Source: an uncultured bacterium
GTDB lineage: Bacteria > Patescibacteriota > Minisyncoccia > Phycocordibacterales > UBA2100
Length of the DNA: 64,000 nucleotides
Reading direction: 5' to 3'
Assembly (NCBI GenBank): GCA_903854215.1
Contig: CAINVT010000009.1
Span: 191-64,190 of the forward strand
Shown here one piece after another: positions 1,957-49,883 of the stretch. The position numbers and the translations under genes were made by a program. Every line of letters begins with the position of its first letter. Position 1 is the first letter of the stretch. A model generated the notes under the pieces. That model was not told where the DNA came from. It saw nothing but the letters and a program-made list of their open reading frames with translations, and ran no database searches.

Positions 1957-3264
1957 TTGGGCGCTATGAAGGCGACCCTAAAAAAAGTCCGCAACGTATA
2001 CGGAATCACAGAATACAAACTGTCGAATGGTCTACGAGTCCTGTATAAGCGTGATACGACACTACCGATCGCGGCCGTATGCGTAACCTTTCACGTCGGA
2101 AGCCGCAATGAGGCAACAGGACATACCGGCGCGACGCATATTCTCGAACATCTCCTTTTTAAGGATTCGGAAAATTACACAAAGGCAAAAGGTAATTCGA
2201 TCACCGATCATCTCGAATGGATGGGGGCGCTGATGAATGCGACGACCTGGCTCGATCGAACCAACTATTTCGAAGTATTGCCCAAAGAACGGGTCGGTGA
2301 AGCGCTCGCGATGGAGGCGGATCGCATGCGCGGCAGTTTGTTCAACGATGCTGATCTCGTTTCCGAAATGACGGTCGTGCGCAATGAATTTGAACGCTCG
2401 CGCAATAATCCGTACGAGATCCTCGACGAAGCGGTCACAGCGACGGCGTTCACCACACATCCGTATCGTATCCCGACGATCGGGCTCAAAGAGGATATTG
2501 AGGGTGCGACGGCCGCGAAACTACGTGAATTCTATGATCAGTTCTATTGGCCGAACAATGCCACGTTGGCTGTGTTCGGCGATGTCTCTCCGAAAGATTT
2601 CGAGAAACTTGTCGTCAAACATTTTGGAGCGATCCCGCATTTGCTGCATGAGATTCCTATCATGACGACGACAGAGCCGACTCAAACAGAATCGCGATCA
2701 TGTGAGATCCGCAAACCAGCCGGCGTATCGATTGCAACGCTCACATACAAGGCGCCGCGTGCGACCGACATCGATTTTGTTCCGGTCCACGTCCTCGCGA
2801 CGATACTCGCGGGAGGATTTTCCAGCAGATTACAGAAGAAGATTGTCGACAAAGGGCTCGCCGCGGAGATCCATTCATCGGTATTTCCGCTTTTTGATCC
2901 GGGTACGATGTCGTTTACTGCGACGATCGGCAAAAATGTCGAACCAAAACGGGTGCTTGATAGCATGCGACGCGAAATGCGAACAATCGCACAGAAGGGC
3001 ATCCTTGCCGCCGAGCTCACGCGTGCGCGTGAACGGATCCTGTCGCAGATCGCCGACGAGCGTGACGGAATTTTTAACGAGATCCGTTCGGTATCCGAAT
3101 CGATCGCGGCGGGGGATTGGACGCTCGGATATGCGTTCGAAGAGCGTCTTATACATCTAAAAGTGAGCGACATTCACAGAGCGGCTAAAAAATATCTCAA
3201 TACAACACAGGAGACATCAGGAATATTGGTCGACACCTTATCAATACCATCTGCAACGATATGA
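1957..3264 (+). CDS. M16 (pitrilysin/insulinase) family zinc peptidase, active subunit
   Basis: 435 aa. Inverted zinc-binding motif HILEHLLF (HxxEH) with a downstream Glu; M16B architecture. Confidence 0.8.
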   Translation: MGAMKATLKKVRNVYGITEYKLSNGLRVLYKRDTTLPIAAVCVTFHVGSRNEATGHTGATHILEHLLFKDSENYTKAKGNSITDHLEWMGALMNATTWLDRTNYFEVLPKERVGEALAMEADRMRGSLFNDADLVSEMTVVRNEFERSRNNPYEILDEAVTATAFTTHPYRIPTIGLKEDIEGATAAKLREFYDQFYWPNNATLAVFGDVSPKDFEKLVVKHFGAIPHLLHEIPIMTTTEPTQTESRSCEIRKPAGVSIATLTYKAPRATDIDFVPVHVLATILAGGFSSRLQKKIVDKGLAAEIHSSVFPLFDPGTMSFTATIGKNVEPKRVLDSMRREMRTIAQKGILAAELTRARERILSQIADERDGIFNEIRSVSESIAAGDWTLGYAFEERLIHLKVSDIHRAAKKYLNTTQETSGILVDTLSIPSATI

Positions 3265-7759: not shown

Positions 7760-9241
7760 ATGGCGAAAGATTTTTTTCAAGATATCGTACCTCCATCGAA
7801 TGACCGAACTCCGCGTCCGACTGCGCGAAAGGCTGCGGTTAAACCTCCCGTACAAGACGTGCAACCGCGCATAGCACCGGAACCGCCGTCAATACCTGCG
7901 GCCTCGTCGACTACGGAATACGTTGATGACGATATTTCATCCACTGAAACGGCTCCCGCACGCGGTATACGCAATATCAGTATGCCGCCGCGAGCTCGTT
8001 ATCGTTCGATGACAGGTGAGTCCGGAGAACCGCTCACTACTGCCGTCGGTATCCCGCCAACGAGACGTCGTTCGAATTTTTCGCGCACATGGATCTGGAT
8101 CATTGCCGTTGTGTGTCTCGCATTACTTGGTTTTCTTGCTCTTTTCATGTTTCGTGCGACGACAGTCACGCTCACTCCACGCTCACAAACAATTCATTTT
8201 GATCAGACATCGCAGTTTAGCGCGTACCCCGTTTCTACTTCGGCAACGGGAACACTTGCATACACCGTTGCGACGACTGATCTGCAAGATTCTGAAACGG
8301 TAACGAGCAACGGGACGACATCGACACAAATGAAAGCGTCCGGATCGATCACCGTTTACAACAATTCTTCCGCCTCCAGTGTCAAACTCATCAAGAATAC
8401 GCGTTTTCAGACACCGGATGGTCTTATATTCCGTGCCCCTGCGGATATTACTATTCCCGGCAAGCAAGGTTCGACACCCGGACAAGTGACCGTCACGGTC
8501 GTTGCCGATCAGGCCGGTCCGTCGTACAACGTCGGCCCGATTTCGCATCTCACCGTGCCCGGTCTGCAGTCCAATGCCGCGATGTATGCGAGTATTTATG
8601 CGCAATCTTCCGGCTCAATGACAGGCGGACTTTCAGGCACTCAGCCGGGCGTATCGGCAAGTGTTCGACAGGCCGCTATTTCCGACATACGGGCTCGACT
8701 TGCGCAAAAAGCGGCGCAGTATATTCAATCGCAAAACACATCGACGATGTTCGCTTTCGCGGGTCTTGCCGATATTACGTATAGCGATGGAACTGATAAC
8801 GCGGCTTCGAGCAGTCAGGTGACGATCAATGAAAACGCGCATATCCAAGTACCGGTCTTTGACGCTCATGCGCTTGCGACAACGGTCGCTCAGACCATGG
8901 CGGTCGATACCGGCAATACCCCGATCCAACTCGTTGACGGATCGGGTTTTAGCGCTCAACCTACAAATTCGACGGCGATCGCACTCGGCACTGACCCCAT
9001 CGACTTTTCATTGGTGGGGAGCGCGCAGATTTTGTGGAGTATTGACACAACAGCATTGGCACGTGCTCTCGCAGGACGCGATCAGAGTGTTTTTCAAACG
9101 GTTATCGGCAAATTTCCCGGTATTGAGTCGGCGCGTGCCCGTATAGAGCCGTTTTGGAGCAGTAGCTTCCCGAGTGATCCTGCCAAAATTACGGTCATTG
9201 TTTCGAATGCTGCAGCTTCTTCTTCAGTGCAAATCAAATAA
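7760..9241 (+). CDS. hypothetical bitopic membrane protein (Pro-rich cytoplasmic N-terminus, one TM helix, Ser/Thr-rich extracytoplasmic domain)
   Basis: ATG at 7760 in frame with the longer ORF from 7706. TM segment WIWIIAVVCLALLGFLALFMF. Low-complexity T/S-rich C-terminal 350 aa. Confidence 0.5.
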   Translation: MAKDFFQDIVPPSNDRTPRPTARKAAVKPPVQDVQPRIAPEPPSIPAASSTTEYVDDDISSTETAPARGIRNISMPPRARYRSMTGESGEPLTTAVGIPPTRRRSNFSRTWIWIIAVVCLALLGFLALFMFRATTVTLTPRSQTIHFDQTSQFSAYPVSTSATGTLAYTVATTDLQDSETVTSNGTTSTQMKASGSITVYNNSSASSVKLIKNTRFQTPDGLIFRAPADITIPGKQGSTPGQVTVTVVADQAGPSYNVGPISHLTVPGLQSNAAMYASIYAQSSGSMTGGLSGTQPGVSASVRQAAISDIRARLAQKAAQYIQSQNTSTMFAFAGLADITYSDGTDNAASSSQVTINENAHIQVPVFDAHALATTVAQTMAVDTGNTPIQLVDGSGFSAQPTNSTAIALGTDPIDFSLVGSAQILWSIDTTALARALAGRDQSVFQTVIGKFPGIESARARIEPFWSSSFPSDPAKITVIVSNAAASSSVQIK

Positions 9242-10129: not shown

Positions 10130-10564
10130 ATGGGAAAAAAACGAATCATAAGAAAATCAGGCGGAACTGTCGATGCGGGACTCAAGTCGCGCTCTCTTGC
10201 ACGCGTCGCCAAGAAGAATATCACTGCCGGTACGCTGCACATCCACGCGACGTTCAACAACACGAAGGTGCTGCTTGCAGACAGAAGCGGTAACACCGTC
10301 GCATGGTCATCTTCCGGAAGTCTTGGATTCTCAGGAGCCAAAAAGGGCACTCCGTTCGCCGCTGCAAAAGTCGGAGAATTGGTCGGCGACAAAGCGAACA
10401 TTATTGGCATGAAGGAGGTCGAAGTTGTCATCCGCGGTGTCGGTGCCGGTCGCGAATCAGCATTGCGTGCCTTTGCCGGTAAGGGGATCGATGTCACCCG
10501 CATTGCAGATGATACGCCGATCCCGCATAATGGCCCACGACCCCCGAAGCCTCGTCGTATATAA
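10130..10564 (+). CDS. rpsK: 30S ribosomal protein S11
   Basis: GTLHIHATFNNTKVLLADRSGNTVAWSSSGSLGFSGAKKGTPFAA is the S11 signature. Confidence 0.95.
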   Translation: MGKKRIIRKSGGTVDAGLKSRSLARVAKKNITAGTLHIHATFNNTKVLLADRSGNTVAWSSSGSLGFSGAKKGTPFAAAKVGELVGDKANIIGMKEVEVVIRGVGAGRESALRAFAGKGIDVTRIADDTPIPHNGPRPPKPRRI

Positions 10565-10681
10565 GCAGTTATTAGTTGTTAGTTTATAGTTTTTAGATAT
10601 GAACATCATGAAAGCAATCTGCCGGGAAAACAAAAACTGTTTGCTATCAACTGACAACTACTAGCTAACAACTGATTCATT
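10565..10681 (+). promoter_or_regulatory. structured rpsK-rpsD intergenic leader with long imperfect inverted repeats; candidate S4 autoregulatory site
   Basis: The 5' arm CAGTTATTAGTTGTTAGTTTATAGTT pairs with the 3' arm CAACTGACAACTACTAGCTAACAACTG, and there is an inner 4-bp GCAA/TTGC stem. It sits immediately upstream of rpsD. Confidence 0.3.
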
Positions 10682-11287
10682 ATGTTACTCGTAAAATCAC
10701 AATACAGGATCGCCCGTCGCCTCGGCGCCGGTGTCTTTGAGAAGACACAATCACAGAAATTCGCGCTTTCAGAAGCTAATACGAAAAAGCCGCGCGGGCG
10801 TGCGCTTTCTGATTACGGTCGCCAATTGATCGAGAAGCAAAAGGTGCGATTTACGTATGGCCTGTCCGAACGCCAGCTTTCAAATTACGCACAGGCTGCG
10901 TTCAAAGAAAAAGAGCCGTCAGTTGCATTGAACATCGCACTCGAGATGCGTGCAGATTCTGCGGTCTATCGAGCCGGCTTCGCCGCCACTCGTCGTGCCG
11001 CTCGTCAGATCGTCAGTCATGGCCATATTGTCGTGAACGGTGTACGAATTACGACGCCTTCGTACCATGTTCGCGTCGGCGATGTCATCACGGTACGAGA
11101 GGGAAGCCGTACCAGTCCGCTTTTTGCCGGTCTCGCAGAAGTTAATCCCGAAAGTGGTCGTGCGATTCCAGGCTGGATCACGGCAGATCCAAAGGTACTT
11201 CGAGCGGAGATCAAGACTGAACCGACCTACAACAGTATAGATATGGGACTCGATTACCCGACGGTGTTTGAGTTTTACAGCAGATAA
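10682..11287 (+). CDS. rpsD: 30S ribosomal protein S4
   Basis: 201 aa with RQLIEKQKVRFTYGLSERQLSNY and an S4 RNA-binding domain. Confidence 0.95.
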   Translation: MLLVKSQYRIARRLGAGVFEKTQSQKFALSEANTKKPRGRALSDYGRQLIEKQKVRFTYGLSERQLSNYAQAAFKEKEPSVALNIALEMRADSAVYRAGFAATRRAARQIVSHGHIVVNGVRITTPSYHVRVGDVITVREGSRTSPLFAGLAEVNPESGRAIPGWITADPKVLRAEIKTEPTYNSIDMGLDYPTVFEFYSR

Positions 11288-11343
11288 TGTATAATGATGC
11301 AACTTTTTATTAGTCTTTTGGGACGCTAACTTTTATTACATTT

Positions 11344-12318
11344 ATGTCGGACTACCACATTGCATTGCCGAGCAAGCCACGCGTTGTCTCCGAGACGGAA
11401 CGAAGCGGTATCTACGAGATAGATGGCTTATATCCTGGGTATGGTAACACGCTGGGTAATTCTCTGCGTCGCATCATCTTGTCATCCCTTCCGGGTGCCG
11501 CGGTTACTCATGTGAAGATTCCCGGAGTACCGCATGAATTCTCGACGATCGAAGGCGTCAAAGAAGATGTCGTCACGATTCTTCTCAATATCCGTAAGAT
11601 CCGTTTCCGATTGCTTTCCGACGAACCACAGACCATTACGCTTTCGATCAAAGGACCGGCGCTCGTGACGGCGGCTGATCTGAAGCTCCCCGGCCAAGTC
11701 GAGATCCTCAACCCCGAACAGCCGATCGCAGAAGTGACCGCTAAAGTGAACTTCGAACTTGAACTGCGAGCCGAACAGGGATTGGGTTACATTCCGAAGG
11801 AGGAGCATCAGAAGGAGCGTGTTGATATCGGCACGATCGCGATCGATGCGATCTTCTCACCGATTCGCCGCGCGAATTACGAAGTAGAGAACATGCGCGT
11901 CGGTGACCGCACCAACTTCAATCGTTTGCGCATTATGATCGAGACCGATGGTACGCTTGCACCGCGCGAGGCACTCGAACGTTCCATCGAGACCATGATC
12001 CATCAGCTCAAAGCGGTAGTCGGATTCAAGGAAGAAGAAGAGTCGGAAGTATCGGCTACAGTCGCCGACTTGCGGGCACCTGTTCGTGAGGACAAAACGA
12101 CTCCGATGGATGCCGAGGTCTTGAAGACTCGTATTACAGAGCTTGGTATGCCGCAGCGCGTCGAGATGGCGCTCGATAATGCGTCTATCCGTACCGTCGG
12201 TGGCCTTGTGCGCAAGCGAGAGGACGACTTGCTCGCTATCGAAGGATTGGGCCAGAAGGGGCTGCAGGATATCAAGCGTGCGCTTTCTAACCTCGGCCTG
12301 ACGTTACGTTCACAATAA
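11344..12318 (+). CDS. rpoA: DNA-directed RNA polymerase subunit alpha
   Basis: 324 aa with an N-terminal dimerisation domain and a C-terminal alpha-CTD. It follows rpsD as in the alpha operon. Confidence 0.95.
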   Translation: MSDYHIALPSKPRVVSETERSGIYEIDGLYPGYGNTLGNSLRRIILSSLPGAAVTHVKIPGVPHEFSTIEGVKEDVVTILLNIRKIRFRLLSDEPQTITLSIKGPALVTAADLKLPGQVEILNPEQPIAEVTAKVNFELELRAEQGLGYIPKEEHQKERVDIGTIAIDAIFSPIRRANYEVENMRVGDRTNFNRLRIMIETDGTLAPREALERSIETMIHQLKAVVGFKEEEESEVSATVADLRAPVREDKTTPMDAEVLKTRITELGMPQRVEMALDNASIRTVGGLVRKREDDLLAIEGLGQKGLQDIKRALSNLGLTLRSQ

Positions 12319-13508: not shown

Positions 13509-13541
13509 ATGTGTAAGGCATCTGTGATATACTCCCGCTGT

Positions 13542-14081
13542 ATGAACGATCTCGTAGATGATGAAATAAACTTCGAGCCCGAAGACGAGCTCGGTGACAT
13601 CGGCGCGGCTACCGCAAAGATTAAGAAGTTGCGTGAACAGTTAAAAGAAGCGCAAGAGAAACGCGACGAATATCTCGATGGGTGGCAACGTTGTAAAGCC
13701 GATGCGATCAATGCACGCAAGGAAGCAGCACAGCAGCACGATCGTGCACATGGTCGCGGCAAAGAGTCGGTACTTGAGGATATCATTCCTGTATTGGATA
13801 GTTTTGATATGGCAGCGAACGGTGAGGCATGGCTTGCGGTAGATGAGAATTGGCGCAACGGTGTCGATCTTATAAGAAATCAATTACTCGACGTGCTTTC
13901 ACGCCATGGGATCGAGCGATTCGGAAAGGTAGGCGAACAATTCGATCATCAGCTACACGAGGCAGTGCAGGAAGTGGACGACATGCCGGGTGAGAGCGGG
14001 GAAGTCGTACGTATTTTGCGCTATGGTTACAGGATGGGTGATCGTGTGATCCGTCCCACACAGGTCATCGTGAAGCAATAG
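13542..14081 (+). CDS. grpE: nucleotide exchange factor GrpE
   Basis: ATG at 13542 (internal M of the longer ORF 13398). It has a coiled-coil N-terminus and the GrpE C-terminal beta-domain (...VRILRYGYRMGDRVIRPTQVIV). Confidence 0.85.
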   Translation: MNDLVDDEINFEPEDELGDIGAATAKIKKLREQLKEAQEKRDEYLDGWQRCKADAINARKEAAQQHDRAHGRGKESVLEDIIPVLDSFDMAANGEAWLAVDENWRNGVDLIRNQLLDVLSRHGIERFGKVGEQFDHQLHEAVQEVDDMPGESGEVVRILRYGYRMGDRVIRPTQVIVKQ

Positions 14082-14291: not shown

Positions 14292-14332
14292 AAGTCCGTG
14301 AATTACCCAATTGGGTTATTTACGGGCTTTCA
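14292..14332. repeat. palindromic repeat copy 1 (core TTACCCAATTGGG)
   Basis: AGTCCGTGAATTACCCAATTGGGTTATTTACGGGCTTTCAC forms a 15-bp-arm hairpin with one mismatch and one G-U pair. It is nearly identical to the copy at 14977 and related to the perfect palindrome at 46309. Confidence 0.8.
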
Positions 14333-14356
14333 CAACGATGCTATTGTTGGACTGAT

Positions 14357-14956
14357 ATGGTCAATTCCGAGAAGATAAAACTAAAATTTCGCGGTATCAA
14401 AAAGGCTTCCGAATATCGCCGCGGAGAGCTTGCGCGCGATGTTCTGAAGGTTGCTGCTGCAGGTCTTGCAGTCGGATCAGTGATCGTGGCTCCGAATATG
14501 CCTCAAATAATTGATTACTTCGATCCGAAAGGTGTCGCAGAACGCCGGCGTATATGGCGCGCGATAAGATATTTGGAAGAGCGAAATACGATAGAGATTC
14601 GCAAGGAAGACGGACATGAGATGGTATTCCTGACGAAGAAAGGCAAAGTACAGCTCGATGAAGATTCGATATGGGATATGGAGATCAGAAAACCGTGGCA
14701 CTGGGATCATAAGTGGCGATTGATCATGTTTGATCTTCCCGCACGTTTCGAGCGGGTGCGTCGGCCATTCCGCGAGAAACTAGCCGATTTCGGTCTCGTA
14801 TCATATCAGAAATCCATCTTCATTTATCCGTATGAATGCCAGGAGGAGATCCTTACGCTCGCGGAATTTTACGGAGTTCGCGAATATATTTGTTACATCG
14901 TTGCGGACGAGATAAGTAACATGCGGGAGATTGCAAAACGGTTTGACTTGTCATGA
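14357..14956 (+). CDS. PaaX-like protein: N-terminal winged-helix domain plus C-terminal Cas2/VapD-like domain; inserted between grpE and dnaK
   Basis: 199 aa. The C-terminal WRLIMFDLPARFERVRRPFREKLADFGLVSYQKSIFIY follows the Cas2/PaaX_C pattern (hydrophobic strand-D-x-P ... R-rich ... GF/G-x-vQ-S-V/I-F). The N-terminal RYLEERNTIEIRKEDGHEMVFLTKKGK is wHTH-like. The domain assignment is from motif recognition only. Confidence 0.5.
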   Translation: MVNSEKIKLKFRGIKKASEYRRGELARDVLKVAAAGLAVGSVIVAPNMPQIIDYFDPKGVAERRRIWRAIRYLEERNTIEIRKEDGHEMVFLTKKGKVQLDEDSIWDMEIRKPWHWDHKWRLIMFDLPARFERVRRPFREKLADFGLVSYQKSIFIYPYECQEEILTLAEFYGVREYICYIVADEISNMREIAKRFDLS

Positions 14957-14976
14957 AGAATTCTTATAATGCATAG

Positions 14977-15017
14977 AGTCCGTGAATTACCCAATTGGGA
15001 TTTTTACGGACTTTCAC
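14977..15017. repeat. palindromic repeat copy 2
   Basis: AGTCCGTGAATTACCCAATTGGGATTTTTACGGACTTTCAC. The first 24 nt are identical to copy 1. It lies between the PaaX-like gene and dnaK. Confidence 0.8.
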
Positions 15018-15182: not shown

Positions 15183-17069
15183 ATGGCAAAAATTTTAGGC
15201 ATCGATTTGGGTACGACCAATTCAGCAATGGCGGTGGTCAAGGGCGGCGAACCTGAGATCATTGAGAATGCTGAGGGGGCCCGTACGACACCGTCCGTCG
15301 TCGCAACATCAAAGACCGGCGAGCGTCTCGTCGGATTGCTCGCACGCCGACAGGCAGTGACCAATCCGAAGAACACGGTCTATCAGATCAAACGCTTTAT
15401 CGGTCACAATTTCGACGAGCCAGCAGTCGAAAAAGATCGTGCTTCCGTGCCATTCGAGACTCAAAAATCCGCTACCGGCGGTATCGAGGTGAAAATGGGC
15501 GATAAATGGTATCGTCCGGAAGAGATTTCGGCGATGATCCTTCAAAAATTGAAGACTGATGCGGAGACACGCCTCGGCGAAACAATCACTGAAGCGGTCA
15601 TAACCGTACCGGCGTATTTTAACGATGCACAGCGCCAGGCCACGAAGGATGCGGGCAAGATCGCCGGCCTCGATGTGAAGCGCATCATCAACGAACCGAC
15701 CGCAGCAGCGCTCGCGTACGGATTCAATAAGAAGAAGAACGAGAAGATCGTCGTATTCGATTTCGGCGGGGGCACCTTCGATATCTCCGTACTTGAAGTC
15801 GGTGATGACGTCATCGAAGTACGTTCGACCGACGGCGACTCACACCTCGGCGGCAAAGACATCGATCAAAAGATCATGGACTGGATCGCAGAAGAATTCA
15901 AAAAAGAATCCGGTATTGATGTTCGCAACGATCCGCTCGCTCGCCAGCGTCTCGACGAAGCCGCGGAGAAAGCGAAGATCGAGCTCTCGACCGCTGTCGA
16001 AAGCGAGATCAACATCCCATTCATTACCTCCGACACTTCGGGCCCCCGTCACCTGCTGGTGAAGTTGAGCCGTGCCAAGCTTGAAGAGCTTACCAATGAA
16101 TTCATCGAGCGTGCCATGACGATTACGAAGCGCGCGATGGAAGCATCGCCGTTCAAGATCACTGATATCAACGAAGTGATCCTTGTCGGCGGTCAGACAC
16201 GTATGCCTGCGATGCAGAAGGCGGTTGAGACATTCTTCAGTAAGAAACCGAATCTGAGCGTCAATCCGGACGAAGTCGTTGCCCTTGGCGCGGCTATACA
16301 GGGCGGTATTTTGCAGGGAGATGTGAAGGACGTACTTTTGCTCGATGTGATCCCGCTCTCGCTGGGTATTGAAACATACGGCGGTGTTGCCACGAAGCTT
16401 ATCGAACGCAATACGACGATCCCGACATCACGTTCGCAAACATTCTCAACCGCATCCGATAATCAACCCTCGGTCGAGATCCACATCGTACAAGGTGAAC
16501 GTCCGATGGCGACTGACAACAAATCGCTCGGCCGGTTCAATCTTGATGGTATTCCTCCCGCGCCGCGCGGTATGCCGCAGGTCGAAGTAAGCTTCGACAT
16601 CGATGCGAACGGTATCCTTTCGGTCAAAGCAAAGGATAAGACAACCAACAAAGAGCAGTCGATCCGCATCGAAGCATCATCCGGACTTTCTGACACAGAA
16701 GTTGAAAAAATGCGCAAAGATGCGGAAGTGAACGCCGAGGCGGACAAGAAGAAACAAGAGCTCGTCGAATCGCAGAATGCTGCCGACCAGATGGTCTATG
16801 CCGCAGAAAAGGCACTCAAAGAACACGGAGACAAAGTATCAGATGATATCAAAAAAGGTGTTCAGGAGAAGATTGATGCTCTGAAGGCGGCGCGCGCCGG
16901 TGTGGACGCACTGACGATCAAGTCCGCCGCGGATGTGCTATCCACTGAAATGAGTAAGATCGGCCCCGCCGTCGCCCAAGCTAAGACAGACGAGGAAGCG
17001 GCAGCGAAGAATCAGCAACCGCCACAAGATCAGACACCTCCTACAGACACAACGGGTGAGCAGAAGTAA
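15183..17069 (+). CDS. dnaK: molecular chaperone DnaK (Hsp70)
   Basis: 628 aa with [21 protein letters not shown] and the full Hsp70 ATPase and substrate-binding domains. Confidence 0.97.
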
Positions 17070-17140: not shown

Positions 17141-18241
17141 ATGAATAGCATGAAGGACTACTATACGATTCTCGGCGTACCACGATCGGCGACCGAAGAT
17201 GATATCAAAAAGGCATTTCGCAAGCTCGCCCAAAAATATCATCCCGACAAAAAAGGCGGCGACGAAGCCAAGTTCAAGGAGATGAGCGAAGCGTATTCGA
17301 TCCTTTCCGACAAAAAGCGCCGTGCGGAGTACGATACCTACGGCAAAACGTTCGCCGGCGGCAATGGCGGCAGCGCTTCGGGCGCAGGATTCGGCGGATT
17401 CGACTTCTCGAATTTTCAGCAGGGATTTCAAGGATTCAACGGTCAGAACGTGGAGTTCGATCTCGGCGATATTTTCGGCGATATCTTTGGAGGTGCAGGT
17501 GGGCAATCGCGAGAACAGGCGAGAGGGCGTGATATTTCGATCGATATCGAGCTCACATTTCGCGAGAGTATTTTTGGTGCCGATCGACGCGTGCTTATTT
17601 CAAAGATGGCCGTCTGTGATGTATGCTCCGGCACCGGTGCCAAAAGAGGCACGAAGCTCGTGTCGTGCAAGACATGCAACGGCAAAGGTGAGATCCGCGA
17701 GACACGTAATACGTTCTTCGGTAATTTCACTTCTGCCCGATTATGTCCGACCTGTAGTGGGCGTGGAGAGGTGCCTGAAACACCGTGCGAAGTATGTCAC
17801 GGTGCCGGCGTCGCCAAACGGCAAGAAGAGATTCATATTTCCGTTCCGTCGGGCGTTCTCGATGGAGAAATGATCCGTATGCCCGGTCGCGGCGAAGCGG
17901 TAAAAGCCGGTGGATCGGGTGATCTCTATGTCAAATTACACATAAAGAAAGATGCGTCGTTCTCGCGCGATGGCAACAATCTCCTGACCGCGCTCTCGAT
18001 CAAGCTTACCGATGCACTGCTCGGCGGTGAATATCACATCCGGACACTCGATGGGGAAGAGGTCGTCACTGTGCCTGCAGGTATCGTGCACGGCGAGACC
18101 ATTCGTATCCGCGGCAAAGGAGTTCCCGGAGCTCGCGGCGGCCGAGGTGATCTTCTGGTGCGGATCGATATCGAATTCCCGAAAAAACTGACTCACACGG
18201 CACGTGATCTTATTGATAAGCTTCGCGCTGAAGGACTCTAA
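17141..18241 (+). CDS. dnaJ: molecular chaperone DnaJ
   Basis: J-domain with HPD (KYHPDKK), a G/F-rich linker, and four CxxCxGxG zinc-finger repeats. Confidence 0.95.
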
Positions 18242-18251
18242 AATTTGATGT

Positions 18252-18746
18252 ATGCACCTTCCTGCTCTTTTCCCCTCGTGGCTCTTGAACATTCCGCTCG
18301 GTTGGATCGTCGTCGTCATAATCGTATTGCTGCTCTCATTCGATGCAATGCGCTCCGGTCCCGGACGCGCCGTCGTTCTCGCCATTGCCTCCCCGATATC
18401 TATTTTTCTTTTTGAAATTCTTCCTCAAACATTTCTGGTGGGTAAGATGTTTACGGCCCTTTCGGCATCGTTTGTCATCGCCGGAATTGCACTTGCGATA
18501 TATATTGTCATCTATCTTCTCCTGCACCGAATGACCGCTACATTTAGCGGTTTATCAACAGGATTGCTCAATTCTCTACTCGCCGGTATTAGTGGAACGA
18601 TCGCATTCATCATACTGTGGCTTCAGATCCCTGCACTCGTGTCGCTCTGGAATCCGGGCAGTCAGATAGATGCGCTATTCGGCTTGCCGTATGCACTCCT
18701 CTGGTTTTTAGGCTCGTTTCTCGTACTTGCTTTTGTGCGGAGCTGA
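18252..18746 (+). CDS. small polytopic membrane protein, possibly CvpA-like
   Basis: 164 aa with four predicted TM helices. The family assignment is weak. Confidence 0.45.
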   Translation: MHLPALFPSWLLNIPLGWIVVVIIVLLLSFDAMRSGPGRAVVLAIASPISIFLFEILPQTFLVGKMFTALSASFVIAGIALAIYIVIYLLLHRMTATFSGLSTGLLNSLLAGISGTIAFIILWLQIPALVSLWNPGSQIDALFGLPYALLWFLGSFLVLAFVRS

Positions 18747-29560: not shown

Positions 29561-29615
29561 ATGGCCGTGCATGGTGCCCATGATGGGCACCATGCACGGC
29601 CATTGGGTATTTTCG
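29561..29615 (+). terminator. very strong perfect hairpin (21-bp arms) plus T-tract between scpA and scpB
   Basis: ATGGCCGTGCATGGTGCCCAT-g-ATGGGCACCATGCACGGCCAT followed by TGGGTATTTTCG. Confidence 0.6.
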
Positions 29616-38187: not shown

Positions 38188-38737
38188 GAACGTCCATAAG
38201 TAGGGAATCCGACTCCCCCGAAGTTTCCAAATTTTTTTCTTAAATTTTTAACTCACATAAGCAAGCGATGATAGGTCAGGTACGGACTCTACATGCGAAC
38301 GATCAAAATCAGCCCGACACGTCCCAGGGGACATTAAGGTGCTAAATATCCATTGACCATCGCAAACACCGGCATTGCAGACACTAGACCGCAATCGGCA
38401 AGAAGCGGGAAGATTTGTCGGCATATCCGTACTGAATGCTTTTGTGGCTTATTTGTTATAGTCATACGTCGCAAAAGATATATTGTGCGACGTTTGATAT
38501 TTTAATCTCGTCTACACCAGACAACTACCCTGTCAAGTTATCCACCGGCATTTTTCCGGATTTGAGATTCCTAGAATGCGCACTCACCCACATTCGCATG
38601 TATAGAAAATTATCTGCATTGCAATTGTGTGCACGCGGCAGTTTTTTCAGTTTTGTCGGGGGATAGACCGTATATCGGGGGATGGTTAGCTATTCCTCAT
38701 TCCCCTATTCCCTACTTCATTGATGCCTTCCTAAAAT

Positions 38738-44744: not shown

Positions 44745-46271
44745 ATGAGATTTTCCGGTCTATTCCATCGTGCGCACCGCGAGAGCGGTACTACCGAAAA
44801 AACACCGCTCTTCCTTCACAATACGCTCGGTAACATAACGGAGCGTTTTGATCTTCCCCCACACGTACGGACGGTGCGCATGTATAACTGCGGTCCGACG
44901 GTCTACGGTGTCCAACACATCGGCAATCTATCGATGTTCGTATTCACCGATGTGCTGCGACGAACGCTTGAATACAATGGGTTTAAGGTCAAGCAGGTCA
45001 TCAACATAACCGACTTCGGCCATCTTACGTCTGACGCCGATGAGGGCGAGGATAAAATGACCAAAGGACTTAAGCGTGAGAAGTTAGCGATCACGATGGA
45101 AAATATGGTCGTGCTCGCCGAGCGCTACGCCACGATCTTTTTTACTGATCTCAAACAGCTCAATATCAACACAGACACGATAGAATTCCCGCGTGCAAGC
45201 GCCTACGTCCCCGCGCAGATCGCGATGATCCAATCGCTTGTCGAGAAAGGCTACGCGTACCAAACGGCACATGGCGTTTATTTCGACACGTCGCGATTCC
45301 ACGACTACGGCAAGCTCGGCGGCGTTGATCTTGTCGGCCAAAAAGAGGGCGCCGGCCTTCGCCAAGGCTCCGGCGGGCAAAGCACGCATGTCGAGATCAA
45401 TCACGAGAAACATCATGCGCATGATTTTGTCTTATGGAAATCCGATTCGAAGCTCGGTTGGGAATCACCGTGGGGATTGGGCTTCCCCGGCTGGCACATC
45501 GAGTGCTCAGCAATGATTCGTGCCGTCTTGGGCGAACAGATCGACATCCACACCGGCGGCATCGAACACATTCCGATCCATCATAATAACGAGATCGCTC
45601 AGTCCGAGGCCGCAACAGGAAAAAAACCATTCTCGCGATTCTGGATGCATCGCGCACACATACAGATCGAAGGCGGCAAGATCGCAAAATCGACCGGTAA
45701 TGTTATTTTTTTGTCCGATGTCATTGCACAGGGATACCATCCGCTCGCCCTTCGGTACCTTTTTCTCGGCGCGCACTACCGCACCAACTCAAATTTCTCC
45801 TGGGAAGCACTTGCTGCATCGCAGTCTGCCTTTGCCAAGCTCCTCGCGGTATGCGTACATTTCGCCGATCGCGAGCCAGGCACGGTCCCCGTTACATGGC
45901 GAGAGAAATTCATCGAGCGCATTAACGACGATCTTGATACTCCCGGAGCGCTCGCGGTCATTTGGGAAATGATCAAAGACAAGTCCCTTTCGCCGGAAGA
46001 TCTCGTCGCCGGGCTTCTGGACTTCGATCGCGTCCTGGGTTTGAATCTTGTTGATCCTAACGAAGCCGCTCTCGCGCTGGCGACGGCCGAGCTCAAAGAA
46101 GAAGTCGCGCTCGACGATCTCACCGTCCAAGTCCGCACCCTCATCGAAGAACGCGAGCAGGCGCGCCGCGACCGTTCATGGGACAAAGCTGATGCACTTC
46201 GCGACCAGATTGACGCCCTCGGCTATACACTTGAAGATGCTAAAGACAGCCTGCGGGTTTTCAAAAAATAA
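44745..46271 (+). CDS. cysS: cysteine-tRNA ligase
   Basis: [16 protein letters not shown] (HIGH region), WHIECSAM zinc site, and KIAKSTGN (KMSKS-like). Confidence 0.9.
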
Positions 46272-46308
46272 GGGTTTTGTAAACCTGTGTTTCGCTTAAT
46301 TTGAGATA

Positions 46309-46342
46309 GTCCGCAATTTACCCAATTGGGTAAATTGCGGAC
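46309..46342. repeat. palindromic repeat copy 3 (perfect 34-bp palindrome) between convergent cysS and leuS
   Basis: GTCCGCAATTTACCCAATTGGGTAAATTGCGGAC shares the TTACCCAATTGGGTAA core and AGTCCG...CGGAC ends with the copies at 14292 and 14977. Confidence 0.8.
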
Positions 46343-46394
46343 ATCATGATATTGATATCTAAATACGCGAGTTGCTATCGCACATCTACCGCCC

Positions 46395-49300
46395 TCAATC
46401 TTCGACAACAACGAAGTTGACTAGCCGATTCGGTACGATGATGACGCGCGAGACAGTCTTACCATCCAGCTTTTCTACTACCGCTTCGTGGGCTAAGTTT
46501 TCAAGCGTCGATTTGTCCGAATCAATGGCCGCATCGATTTCCCCACGGGTCTTGCCGTTGATCTGTATCGCAATGTGCGCGGTGGTGCCTTTTGATTTCG
46601 TCTCGTCGGCGACCGGCCATGGCTCGAGTCGCAATTCGGTCGGGTGACCGCTTTTTTCCCAGAGCTCGTGAGTGAGATGCGGTGCGAATGGCGCGAGCAA
46701 TTTGAGAAACGTCTCGTACGCTTCAGATGAAACACTGTCGAGCTTCTCATATTCATTCAAAAGGATCATCAGTGCCGAGACGGCCGTATTCATTTTGAGC
46801 TTCTCAATATCATCGCTGACCTTCTTGATCGTCTGATGCAAAAGTGTTTCGAGCGGAGGTTCAAGCTTCGTCACGTTATCGGCCTTGATATCGGCAACGC
46901 GTTCAAGGAATCGCCGCATACCAACGACGCCGTTGTTGTTCCACGCGACCGGCTGATCGAATGGCCCGATGAACATTTCGTACAGGCGCAACGAGTCAGC
47001 GCCGACGGATTCAACGAGCGCATCTGGGCTCACCGAGTTCCCCTTCGACTTTGACATCTTCGAGCCGTCTTCGGCGAGAATAAGCCCATGGCTCGTGCGC
47101 TTCATATACGGCTCTGGCGAAGGCACTAATCCCTGGTCGAATAGGAATTTATGCCAAAAGCGCGAATAGAGAAGGTGCAGCACCGTGTGTTCCATGCCTC
47201 CGTTGTACCAATTCACCGGTGTCCAATACTTCATCAGGTCCGGCGAAGCGAATTCATGCGTATTCTGCGGATCTATATAGCGCAAGTAGTACCAGCTCGA
47301 GCCCGCCCAGTTGGGCATCACGTCCGTTTCTCGCTTTGCATCACCGCCGCACTTCGGGCACTTTGTGTTGACCCACTTAGTGATATTTGCGAGCGGAGAT
47401 TCTCCCGTTTCGGTCGGTTCATATTTTTCCACTTCCGGTAACGTGACCGGCAATTGATCTTCCGGCACCGGCTGCCATCCGCATCTCTCACAATGGATCA
47501 TGGGTATCGGCTCGCCCCAGTATCGCTGGCGGCTGAATACCCAATCTCGAAGTTTGAATGTCGTTACCATCTTCCCGCCGACGAATTCAGTGATCATTTT
47601 CTTCGCCTCATCGCTCGGAAGCCCGCTCAGTGTACCGGAGTTGACCAGAAATCCGTCATCGACAAAAAATTTGTCATTGAGATATTCCCAATCAATTTTA
47701 TCCTTGTCTTTTCCTCTATTTTTAAGCTGTTGCTCCTTGAACTTTTTAACAAATCGCTGTGACAACACCAGGGCTGTGTGGTGATTCAGTGATTTCTCTT
47801 GTTCCTCGAAATCATCATCCTGGCAATCAAATTCTCGAATATATGGTCCTATATCAATTTCGATTCCCTCGTCGTTTTTTAATATTGAATTCGTCAAATT
47901 TTCTGATATTTTCTTTTCTGCCACCTTGTGGAATCCAAGTTCGCCGAATAACGTAAGCAATTTCTGGTATGAATTGTCATCTTTTGTTATCAGATCAATA
48001 TCCTCAAATTCGCGATAAATGATTTTTGCATAAAAAGCGCAGGCCAAACCACCCAAAACCCAGAATTTGATATCTTTCTTTTTTGCGGCCTCATATATGG
48101 TGTCCAATGCAGTCAAAACTTTTTCAGTTTTTTCAAAGGCGGACATATCCGGCGTAACGGATTGAATAATAGGTAACCCGTACTTCTTAGCAAATGCACC
48201 ATCGCGCTCATCATGGGCTGGCACGGCCATGATAGCGCCGGTGCCGTAACTGCCGAGCACATAATCAGCAATGAAAATCGGAATCTCTTTTTTATTCGCC
48301 GGGTTTATAGCCTTGATCCCCTTCAGTTCGACGCCGGTCTTTTCTTTACCTTCAGCTGTGCGATCGATATCCGATTTGTTCCGTGCCGCCGTTTGATACG
48401 CGATCACCTCATCTTTGTTATCGAATTCATTCGCAAGCATCGAGACCAACGGATGTTCCGGTGCAAGTACCATATACGTCGCGCCGAATAATGTATCCGG
48501 GCGAGTCGTGAATACGGTCAAGCTCTGCATAAAGAGTTTCTTGAGACCATCGGTAATGGGCCCGAGTTCAAGCGATTCTTCAGCATCCGTCTGTTCGAGC
48601 ACATACTTTCCAGTCGCCTTCGAGATATATAATCCGCGAAGCGGAAGGTACGGGTCTACAGCGCCGTGCGATTCCGAAGTCAGAATAACGGGTCGTGTCG
48701 TTTCTATATGTGTTGCAACTTTCCCGGGCGTTATGAAGCATAAATTATTTCTCCATTCCGCATCAACTTTTCCACCACGCTTTCGGGCGATGTCCGCATA
48801 ATATGACTGCATACGACCACCTATCTCTTCGATGGAAAGTGATTTCTCGTCATCTCCGGCGAGCGCATTCCGTTTTACAGCGATCGGATCGATCATTTCC
48901 CCGTCGATAAAGAATCCGCTGTCATCGGCGAATACCGGCAGATCGGTGAGCGCTGCGAGAGCCCGAGCTTTTTTTTCGGAATTTTCTTCGAGAGTTCGGG
49001 CGTCTTCCGAGACGTCAAACCGTTCGATGCCAATATCCTTTGGCATCAACAATTCGATATCGATATGCCCTTCTTCGAAAAGTTTCCGCATACGCTTGAG
49101 CTTTCCCAGATTATTCGTGGCGAAAACGATCCTCATGCGCGGACGTTGCCACGAAAGCGAAAATGATATCTCCGCTCCATCCGACGGTCCGATCCAATTG
49201 CGCTGTTCCGTCTTCGCTCGCTCGATGTAATCAACGGTATCGAGGTCGTCGTAAAGTCGCTGCGCATATTTCGTAATTGCCATCATCCACTGTTCCTTTT

Positions 49301-49883
49301 CACGCTTCTCAACCGGCGTACCGCATCGCTCGCAGCAGCCGTCGACGACCTCTTCGTTGGCAAGTCCGATCTTGTCCTTCGGGCACCAATTGATCAGCGT
49401 CTTTGCTTTATACGTCAGACCTTTTTTAAAGAATTGTAAAAAAAGCCACTGCGTCCATTTGTAATATGAAGAATCGGTCGTGTTGATCTCGCGAGACCAA
49501 TCGAACGAGAGCCCGAGCGATTTGATCTGCCGGCGGAAGTTGTCGGTGTTCTCTTTGGTAACGATACGCGGATCCCGACCTGTCTTCAGTGCATAATTTT
49601 CCGTCGGTAAACCGAATGCATCCCAGCCGATCGGATATAAGACGTTATACCCTTGTGCACGGCGTTTGCGCGCCAGGACGTCGAGCGCGGTCCAGCTCCG
49701 CACATGCCCTACATGAAGCCCCTCACCGGAAGGATATGGAAACTCGATCATCAGATAATCCTTCGGCTTCTCTGAAACATCATCGGCGCGATACGCCGAT
49801 TCCTTCTCCCATCGAGACTGCCACTTCTTCTCTATCTTCTTGTGATCGTAATTCTTCATAATAAGTAATGTACGTCCTTCCAA
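46395..49883 (-). CDS. leuS: leucine-tRNA ligase (1162 aa) with two large insertions in the CP1 editing domain: a Ham1/ITPase-like domain and an ANT(2'')-like nucleotidyltransferase domain
   Basis: Class I HVGH and KMSKS motifs and an intact editing core (TVFTTRPDTLFGATY; GTGAIMAVPAHDERD). Insertion 1 (residues about 245-453, nt about 48525..49151) contains RIVFATNNLGKLKRMRKL ... LEENSEKKARALAALTDLPVFADDSGFFIDG, the Ham1/RdgB motif set. Insertion 2 (residues about 578-745, nt about 47649..48152) contains KFWVLGGLACAFYAKIIYREFEDIDLI...LFGELGF, the aminoglycoside 2''-nucleotidyltransferase-like pattern. Confidence 0.88.
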   Translation of the reverse strand: MEGRTLLIMKNYDHKKIEKKWQSRWEKESAYRADDVSEKPKDYLMIEFPYPSGEGLHVGHVRSWTALDVLARKRRAQGYNVLYPIGWDAFGLPTENYALKTGRDPRIVTKENTDNFRRQIKSLGLSFDWSREINTTDSSYYKWTQWLFLQFFKKGLTYKAKTLINWCPKDKIGLANEEVVDGCCERCGTPVEKREKEQWMMAITKYAQRLYDDLDTVDYIERAKTEQRNWIGPSDGAEISFSLSWQRPRMRIVFATNNLGKLKRMRKLFEEGHIDIELLMPKDIGIERFDVSEDARTLEENSEKKARALAALTDLPVFADDSGFFIDGEMIDPIAVKRNALAGDDEKSLSIEEIGGRMQSYYADIARKRGGKVDAEWRNNLCFITPGKVATHIETTRPVILTSESHGAVDPYLPLRGLYISKATGKYVLEQTDAEESLELGPITDGLKKLFMQSLTVFTTRPDTLFGATYMVLAPEHPLVSMLANEFDNKDEVIAYQTAARNKSDIDRTAEGKEKTGVELKGIKAINPANKKEIPIFIADYVLGSYGTGAIMAVPAHDERDGAFAKKYGLPIIQSVTPDMSAFEKTEKVLTALDTIYEAAKKKDIKFWVLGGLACAFYAKIIYREFEDIDLITKDDNSYQKLLTLFGELGFHKVAEKKISENLTNSILKNDEGIEIDIGPYIREFDCQDDDFEEQEKSLNHHTALVLSQRFVKKFKEQQLKNRGKDKDKIDWEYLNDKFFVDDGFLVNSGTLSGLPSDEAKKMITEFVGGKMVTTFKLRDWVFSRQRYWGEPIPMIHCERCGWQPVPEDQLPVTLPEVEKYEPTETGESPLANITKWVNTKCPKCGGDAKRETDVMPNWAGSSWYYLRYIDPQNTHEFASPDLMKYWTPVNWYNGGMEHTVLHLLYSRFWHKFLFDQGLVPSPEPYMKRTSHGLILAEDGSKMSKSKGNSVSPDALVESVGADSLRLYEMFIGPFDQPVAWNNNGVVGMRRFLERVADIKADNVTKLEPPLETLLHQTIKKVSDDIEKLKMNTAVSALMILLNEYEKLDSVSSEAYETFLKLLAPFAPHLTHELWEKSGHPTELRLEPWPVADETKSKGTTAHIAIQINGKTRGEIDAAIDSDKSTLENLAHEAVVEKLDGKTVSRVIIVPNRLVNFVVVED

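Follow-up and report, generated by a model that had tools for sequence, protein, structure and literature searches.

In a 64,000-nucleotide stretch of DNA from an uncultured bacterium (the whole of which is called the window below), a gene for a 199-aa PaaX-like protein, here designated PaaXl, separates grpE from dnaK and dnaJ and is bracketed by two copies of a 34–36 bp palindrome. The organism belongs to the ultra-small Patescibacteria (candidate phyla radiation, CPR) and is of the Kaiserbacteria/Paceibacteria type. Comparison with related loci points to the palindrome as the cognate binding site of the adjacent protein, a reading to which we assign a probability of roughly 80%. That PaaXl would repress dnaK from this site is somewhat favored, with less assurance, and a response of PaaXl to heat shock, suggested by analogy, is doubtful. 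The direct evidence is comparative, namely the positions of the sites, their matches to promoters, the half-site-like evolution of their arms, co-variation with the recognition helix and the phylogenetic distribution; from it we infer binding and the direction of regulation, whereas any response to heat or unfolded proteins is suggested by analogy. In the literature searched, no paper connects dnaK, or the palindromes described here, with a PaaX-like protein.

The PaaX-like protein and its palindromes

Three copies of the palindrome, whose core is CCCAATTGGG, are present in the window, at 14293–14328 (copy 1, or O1), 14977–15012 (copy 2, or O2) and 46308–46343 (copy 3, a solo copy); no strand is assigned to them. 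Aligned as a repeat family, they occupy 41-nt registers (14293–14333, 14977–15017 and 46308–46348). The core 16-mer TTACCCAATTGGGTAA, with up to three mismatches, was observed three times against 0.12 expected, a number reached in 1 of 100 shuffles, and the octamer CCAATTGG was found nowhere else in the 64 kb. O1 and O2 have 15 and 14 arm matches out of 18, respectively; they share 38 of 41 bases, including the first 23 nt, and a 3' flank, TTTCAC. Copy 3 contains a perfect 34-bp palindrome (46309–46342) with the same outer (AGTCCG) and inner (ACCCAATTGGGT) blocks as O1 and O2 and a different but symmetric spacer. It is located 37 nt past the stop codon of cysS (forward strand, ending at 46271) and 52 nt past that of leuS (reverse strand, ending at 46395). 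All three copies are predicted to fold strongly as RNA (−22.2, −20.1 and −28.9 kcal/mol; z from −5 to −10), copy 3 on either strand (−28.9/−28.6 kcal/mol), and neither Rfam at gathering thresholds nor a tRNA scan gave a match in the window. The initial annotation of this DNA had described the three copies, the bracketing of a 199-aa gene with a winged helix-turn-helix (wHTH) and a Cas2-like domain that sets grpE apart from dnaK-dnaJ, and the perfect 34-bp palindrome between convergent cysS and leuS, all of which our analysis bears out. Its coordinates needed small corrections: copy 1 was taken to start at 14292, one nucleotide early, and the identical 5' part of copies 1 and 2 to span 24 nt.

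PaaXl (14357–14956, forward strand) matches the Pfam family PaaX_M (PF20803) over residues 115–186 (E = 5.5e-16; 58.9 bits, cut-off 24). Its AlphaFold2 model (pLDDT 80) shows three helices and a β-hairpin wing followed by a ferredoxin-like domain, which gives an N-terminal winged helix (recognition helix, residues 60–75; wing, 79–92) and a Cas2-like/ferredoxin-like domain (115–195), both modelled with confidence. In a Foldseek comparison of this model with PDB, the best match was PaaX of E. coli W (8a39; 186 columns), followed by wHTH and Cas2 proteins, and the sole match to an HrcA-like entry was marginal. A profile search also matched the wHTH protein AF_1382. The Pfam search of PaaXl yielded no match to HrcA (PF01628/PF03444), Y1_Tnp (PF01797), PaaX_C or the N-terminal PaaX model, and the chain ends at residue 199, right after the Cas2-like domain. 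A defense-system search with PaaXl indicated no membership and gave weak Cas2 matches only. D126, in the β1 region that aligns with Cas2, is invariant. A hydrophobic stretch at residues 30–47 had been considered as transmembrane; this reading was dropped, as the model places a low-confidence β-hairpin between helices there, inside the winged-helix domain.

PaaX is a repressor of phenylacetate catabolism that binds (imperfectly) palindromic operators. Like PaaXl, PaaX of E. coli (8a39) consists of an N-terminal winged helix and a central Cas2-like domain, and the PaaX domain that matches the Cas2-like part is reportedly described, in the abstract of the published structure, as a dimerization domain. 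However, PaaXl has 199 aa against 305 residues of the solved PaaX chain, with ~15% identity in the structural alignment; it lacks the C-terminal effector/ligand domain, has no paa genes nearby, and its proposed target is dnaK through a 36-bp palindrome of four blocks. Because of its similarity to PaaX, PaaXl is probably a dimeric DNA-binding repressor that has the PaaX architecture minus the C-terminal ligand domain and in which the Cas2-like domain would serve as the dimer interface. It is the only member of the PaaX family in the window. Its neighbors are rpsI, grpE, dnaK and dnaJ, as in at least 12 relatives. There is no palindrome upstream of grpE (13542–14081, forward strand; 179 aa; Pfam GrpE, 5.7e-41), and dnaK (15183–17069, forward strand; Pfam HSP70, 5e-244) and dnaJ (17141–18241, forward strand; DnaJ domains) are the genes proposed to be regulated.

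Orthologs were sampled from GTDB species representatives and metagenome contigs (loci numbered with the prefix L). The scan of GTDB representatives gave at least 586 PaaXl relatives, nearly all in Patescibacteria, the best of which is 56% identical to the PaaXl of the window; the genome of the window itself is not among these representatives. In all 12 GTDB loci with a protein at least 41% identical, the gene is located immediately upstream of dnaK, even where grpE has been relocated (L016). It is also upstream of dnaK on metagenome contigs, and homologs at 51–56% identity on long contigs keep the order rpsI-grpE-PaaXl-dnaK-dnaJ. The orthologous loci remain at this one place through a deep clade, with DnaK identity down to 68%. 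Two palindromes of 32–36 bp occur at the same two positions in nearly all ortholog genomes, and their sequence is specific to each genome (for example, CTCCTGTAATTCTCGCAATTGCGAGAATTACAGGAG in L009 and GGCTGACAAAAATCCCAATTGGGAAAATTGTCAGCC in L011). In IMG/VR (2.9 million viral contigs), no PaaXl relatives were found. In almost every locus of the clade, dnaJ is followed by a conserved gene of ~164 aa without a Pfam match (18252–18746 in the window, 13774–14265 in L001), which may belong to the dnaK operon.

To compare the arms of the palindromes, we used 11 genomes with two dnaK-locus sites each. Arm identity was 84.1% within one site and 85.1% between the two sites of the same genome, and the arm mismatches on the sense strand (G·T 7, A·C 10, T·T 16, A·A 11) had no bias towards G·U wobble. 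Positions 1–4, 6–9 and 15–18 of the half-site are conserved, positions 5 and 10–13 are variable and often asymmetric, and conservation extends all the way to the dyad. The sites of a paralog, L085, share the outer and inner blocks, hold their own −35 and −10 elements in the spacers and do not fold (z = −0.3). Since the arms are no more alike within than between sites, show no wobble bias and, in L085, do not fold, they are best regarded as half-sites of a dimeric protein. The outer block of such a half-site (positions 1–9) would be CTCCwGTAA in most relatives and AGTCCGTGA in this genome, the inner block beside the dyad would be (A/C)CCAA, and the spacer of ~4–5 bp between the blocks would be free to vary.

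The outer block also changes together with the protein. Twelve of 16 orthologs have the recognition helix ERNR[IL]WK[AT][IL]KYLE, and all twelve carry the outer block CTCC[AT][GC]TA[AT]. In the other four, K68 is substituted and each has a different outer block: R68 with AGTCCGTGA in the window, D68 with CTCGAGTAA in L007, S68 with GGCTGACAA in L011 and N68 with GTCTAACAA in L015. The four changes fall on four different branches of the tree, and shared ancestry limits the statistics of this co-variation. K68 is a predicted specificity residue.

Predicted promoters and the HrcA/CIRCE outgroups

The promoters and start sites described here are consensus predictions, and the argument for them is their conservation across lineages. 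A predicted PaaXl promoter (14319–14347, forward strand) consists of a −35 element, TTTACG (14319–14324), which is inside the right arm of O1, a 17-nt spacer and TGc followed by TATTGT (14342–14347). The ATG is only 9 nt after the −10, and the mRNA is therefore probably leaderless. The same geometry, TTTAC(A/T/G)-17-TGnTAnnnT with a start codon 6–10 nt later, recurs upstream of the gene in L004, L007, L008, L009, L011 and L014, and the upstream palindrome lies 22–47 bp before the start codon of the ortholog in 10 relatives. The predicted dnaK promoter, TTGACT-16-TATAAT (14943–14970, forward strand), agrees with the consensus at 11 of 12 positions, and its −35 coincides with conserved F-D-L codons at the C-terminal end of PaaXl. 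O2 begins at 14977, 6 nt past this −10, and would occupy approximately +1 to +36. The window and about 10 relatives share this arrangement, in which TTGACT-16/17-TAYAAT ends 6–12 nt ahead of the palindrome. In the deepest lineage (L017/L018), a gene is inserted after PaaXl, yet a palindrome 72 nt before dnaK is retained; its altered center, CCACTTGCAT, supplies the −35 of a promoter (TTGCAT-17-TAATAT), and no palindrome is left at the PaaXl gene itself.

Similar −10 elements were seen at other genes. The predicted grpE promoter, TGaTATACT (13525–13533, forward strand), would give a leaderless mRNA, and TGnTATACT 6–9 nt before the ATG is present also in L001 and L004. An extended −10 (TGnTAnnnT) 6–10 nt before the start codon is shared by grpE (13525–13544 in the window), the PaaX-like gene (14339–14359) and trpS (L107, ~18140–18165; L016, ~2536–2560, reverse strand), which suggests that leaderless mRNAs are common in the clade. 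Unlike these genes, dnaK has a leader of 60–190 nt.

With regard to known chaperone operators, CIRCE (TTAGCACTC-N9-GAGTGCTAA, at most three mismatches) was detected neither in the window nor in L001–L018, and relaxed HAIR and CtsR patterns gave scattered matches, none of them in the window or at any dnaK promoter. In the outgroup CPR loci L055 and L085, grpE-dnaK is preceded by CIRCE and by a short hrcA; the window and the L001–L018 loci have neither. A neighbor-joining tree of DnaK, DnaJ and GrpE, with these two outgroup loci as root, places the gain of PaaXl at the base of the ingroup; according to this tree the gene was gained once and then lost or replaced at least three times. Because the outgroups have hrcA and CIRCE at the dnaK locus and PaaXl is basal in the ingroup, this looks like a non-orthologous replacement, in which PaaXl and its palindrome would have taken the place of HrcA/CIRCE at this locus. 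The two arrangements resemble each other: HrcA/CIRCE (and HspR/HAIR) loci also hold the repressor gene within the grpE-dnaK-dnaJ cluster, with one inverted repeat separating the chaperone gene from a strong sigma-70-type promoter and a second copy at the repressor promoter. However, PaaXl belongs to an unrelated protein family, its operator sequence is unrelated, no copy was seen beside other chaperone genes, and a stress signal for PaaXl is suggested by analogy.

Solo copies, paralogs and alternative explanations

A number of observations weigh against the reading of PaaXl as a repressor of dnaK. The gene is dispensable: in a survey of an unbiased sample of loci collected through GrpE homologs, in which L107 has the PaaXl gene, three loci (L111, L112 and L113) have dnaK right after grpE, under a plain TTGACA-17-TATATA promoter that lacks an operator, and two from the sister lineage of the window (L105/L106) hold a 236-aa Y1-transposase/RAYT-like gene in the grpE-dnaK slot. 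Next, the solo copies away from dnaK (n = 9: copy 3 of the window, L011, L016, L107 and five from an exhaustive pattern scan of metagenomes) start 4–40 nt past stop codons (thrS 8, rnc 4, atpC 20, a histidine kinase 20, cysS 37), and the eight that can be classified are four convergent, four tandem and no divergent. These sites are more symmetric at variable positions than the dnaK-locus sites (51/60 versus 104/168, p = 0.001; 19/24 and p = 0.12 when restricted to the four solo sites found without the pattern scan). Relatives have unrelated, ordinary hairpins at solo positions (L109 after cysS, L001 after the histidine kinase), and among the matches of the exhaustive metagenome scan no palindrome was beside another chaperone gene. 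Finally, a flanking pair of palindromes is found in 44 of 71 paralogs versus 1 of 127 controls and so is not specific to dnaK, and at least 8 of 19 paralog loci have a convergent next gene, which means that the downstream copy cannot, as a rule, serve as the operator of a promoter.

The RAYT-like gene of L105 (slot 10556–11349, identical in L106), whose protein matches Y1_Tnp, is itself flanked by two copies of TGTGCAAGTCWGACTTGCACA, a 21-bp palindrome of the form TGTGCAAGTC(A/T)GACTTGCACA, and the downstream palindrome in L105 supplies the −35 (TTGCAC) of the predicted dnaK promoter. As for the solo copies, a further site in addition to the nine is located 22 nt upstream of uvrA (L100). Solo copies are few: the 64-kb window has one, the 59.7-kb L001/L087 contig has one, and most paralogs lack any within ±10 kb. 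Copy 3 was sought at the 3' end of cysS in three relatives (L108–L110) and was absent, and it is therefore a lineage-specific site. The position 20 nt past the histidine-kinase stop codon is common to L016 and L107, each with the palindrome version of its own genome. Solo copies keep the blocks for protein recognition while occupying the niche of a terminator; the protein probably binds them too, and they may terminate transcription as hairpins or roadblocks. For copy 3, the simplest view is that of an additional binding site which would double as a bidirectional terminator of the hairpin or roadblock type. We also observed solo palindromes beside genes for aminoacyl-tRNA synthetases (cysS/leuS, thrS, and trpS in two lineages), at 46308–46343 in the window, 1830–1865 in L098, 2631–2662 in L016 and ~18040–18075 in L107; this is 3 of 8 independent positions versus ~5% expected per site, by a post hoc estimate made by hand.

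To test the paralogs, the 140 bp on either side of the gene were compared for a common 24-mer matching at 19 positions or more. The paralogs are 30–40% identical and occur in other genomic contexts, almost always with a palindrome version of 30–36 bp private to the locus, one copy 0–60 bp ahead of the start codon and the other directly past the stop codon (pairs within the range L019–L086 include L037, 4104–4136 and 4840–4872; L042, 2344–2376 and 3011–3043; and L032, 9939–9971 and 10644–10676). The palindrome centers differ by subfamily (GCATATGC, GCGATCGC, GCTATAGC and CCGGCCGG). In the GCATATGC subfamily the downstream copy is a perfect palindrome and the upstream copy breaks symmetry exactly to carry a −10 (TAGAAT/TATAAT), which points to an operator at the promoter of that same gene. 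In Patescibacteria, short PaaX_M proteins form ~5,400 clusters at 50% identity and often occur several per genome. One PaaX_M paralog (L062, 2986–4346) is surrounded by seven copies of GGGACTATAnGGACATATGTTCTTATAGTCCC, 80–140 bp apart, three on each side and one proximal to the promoter.

Other palindromes were seen in the window and in relatives. A perfect 43-bp palindrome at 29561–29603 (21-nt arms, 1-nt center) lies 15 nt past the stop codon of a 100-aa ORF, before scpB, with a T-rich stretch a few bases on; it is probably a very long terminator hairpin and is unrelated in sequence to the dnaK-locus palindrome. Another, ATACGTCGCAAAAGATATATTGTGCGACGTAT, is conserved between the window (38462–38497) and L108 (981–1012), whose CysS is 73% identical; the intergenic region around it is long, ~550 bp in the window, and has no Rfam or tRNA match. 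In L011, a reverse-strand membrane-protein gene is inserted after grpE, and three different palindromes follow in series there (9051–9207): a perfect PaaXl-type site, then GCCCACACATAACGTATACGTTATGTGTGGGC with a T-run, then ATCGGCGTCGGGGATTCATCCCCAACGCCGAT. The LeuRS encoded next to copy 3 (46395–49883, reverse strand; 1162 aa) has inserted Ham1-like (252–327) and nucleotidyltransferase/aminoglycoside-adenylyltransferase-like (585–692) domains, and the LeuRS of relatives (959–965 aa) has a NUDIX insertion.

Several explanations compete with a protein operator. It is rather unlikely, in our view, that the palindromes act as RNA (or single-stranded DNA) hairpins, i.e., non-canonical terminators, 3'-end stabilizers or processing sites, with PaaXl irrelevant. 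The strong folding of all three window copies (−22.2, −20.1 and −28.9 kcal/mol) fits such a role, as do solo copies 4–40 nt behind stop codons, half of them between convergent genes and near-perfect even where positions otherwise vary, the unrelated hairpins of relatives at the same positions, and other long perfect hairpins past stop codons in the window, such as that at 29561–29603. However, the dnaK-locus sites have neither excess intra-site pairing nor a G·U bias, block conservation reaches the dyad (CCAATTGG), although the loop of a hairpin would not require it, each genome has one version that changes together with the recognition helix, paralog sites with asymmetric spacers do not fold, and O2, being downstream of a strong conserved promoter, would as a terminator abort dnaK transcripts. 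Intrinsic terminators likewise form a stable hairpin shortly past stop codons, as do copy 3 and the other solo copies, but the palindromes have no T-tract, for which reason a terminator scan misses them, and their stem is shared between sites and conserved by block, not by pairing. The suggestion in the initial annotation of terminators without T-tracts is not supported for copies 1 and 2, since their arms show no covariation specific to pairing and copy 2 comes after the dnaK promoter, but is a live possibility for copy 3 and the solo copies, given their positions 4–40 nt behind stops. That PaaXl binds the palindromes chiefly to insulate gene ends, as a roadblock (a protein-dependent terminator), or to regulate its own gene by looping seems quite unlikely; dnaK would then be only one of several insulated units, with no link to stress. 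The downstream copy throughout the family regardless of the orientation of the next gene, the solo copies between convergent genes and the site past the histidine-kinase stop in L016 and L107, each with its own version, are consistent with it. Against this, a roadblock does not need the perfect symmetry of non-contact positions in solo copies, the deepest lineage (L017/L018) retains only the site at the dnaK promoter, and the cysS site is not kept in relatives.

A selfish, REPtron-like module, in which PaaXl would maintain or spread the flanking palindromes, the Cas2-like domain being a possible nuclease, and the placement at dnaK and any effect on dnaK would be accidental, appears very unlikely. 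REP/RAYT systems share with PaaXl a single gene flanked by its cognate palindrome and solo extragenic palindromes behind genes; in line with this are the cognate palindromes on both sides of the gene throughout the family, the REP-like scatter of solo copies in extragenic 3' regions, the alternating presence and absence of the gene among close relatives, the same flanking layout of a RAYT-like Y1 gene in the same slot, and the invariant D126 in the Cas2-aligned β1 region. However, PaaXl is no Y1/HUH transposase, the palindrome is apparently low in copy number (~1 solo copy per 60 kb in the window and on the L001/L087 contig, the two long contigs covered), its arms evolve like half-sites in double-stranded DNA, and the upstream copies are built into predicted promoters. 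Moreover, orthologs have kept a single position across a deep clade, no relatives turned up in IMG/VR, PaaX itself is a repressor, and the E. coli PaaX residue aligned with D126 is a Glu. Paralogs in one genome are 30–40% identical and have different palindromes, and therefore there is no sign of recent transposition. A recently mobilized cassette, miniature inverted-repeat element or insertion sequence was rejected because of the conserved synteny and tree, together with the divergent paralogs and the lack of relatives in viral contigs. The mobilized cassette proposed in the initial annotation is likewise not supported, the order grpE-PaaXl-dnaK being inherited across the clade. The bracketing that it described is a family-wide trait, however, and the gene is lost in some relatives and in one replaced by a RAYT-like gene with palindromes of its own, so that a REP-like element might still be involved. 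The grpE-dnaK junction of relatives, to which the initial annotation had pointed, holds the gene and palindrome pair clade-wide, but the gene is missing in some close relatives.

A broader interpretation, which we consider unlikely but the most credible of these alternatives, is that the short PaaX-like proteins of Patescibacteria form an unrecognized class of self-flanked protein-palindrome modules, each with a private 30–36 bp palindrome at both ends of the gene and solo copies behind other genes (apparently enriched by aminoacyl-tRNA synthetase genes). The complex or hairpin would then be a factor-dependent terminator or insulator, or the analog of a REPtron with a wHTH-Cas2-like protein, and the dnaK repressor might be one co-opted member. 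The operator reading of the initial annotation, with PaaXl as a chaperone regulator, is the one best supported by comparison, in view of the site positions, promoter overlap, half-sites, helix co-variation and outgroup hrcA/CIRCE, and its statement that no hrcA or CIRCE is evident in this operon agrees with our searches (no CIRCE with up to three mismatches in the window, no HrcA match of PaaXl); the heat-shock part of that reading is drawn from analogy.

A candidate repressor of chaperone genes

According to the proposed model of a PaaXl operator, the pair of PaaXl and palindrome would have been gained at the base of the Kaiserbacteria/Paceibacteria-type clade. Binding to O1, over the −35 of its own promoter, would result in autorepression, and binding to O2, over the transcription start of the near-consensus dnaK promoter, in repression of dnaK-dnaJ. 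The gene grpE has its own predicted promoter, with no palindrome site. By analogy with HrcA or HspR, the stress signal might be chaperone titration or thermolability.

Gene regulation in CPR/Patescibacteria has been little studied experimentally. If the proposed role is correct, PaaXl would represent a new type of chaperone-gene repressor, unrelated to HrcA, at a locus with no CIRCE, HAIR or CtsR operator, and its operator would be defined, its specificity residue predicted (K68), and natural variants, by loss or replacement, available for comparison. The family-wide pairing raises the question of why a second palindrome always follows the gene. The private palindromes that flank these genes throughout the family would, if the reading holds, provide regulator-site pairs for thousands of uncultivated genomes.

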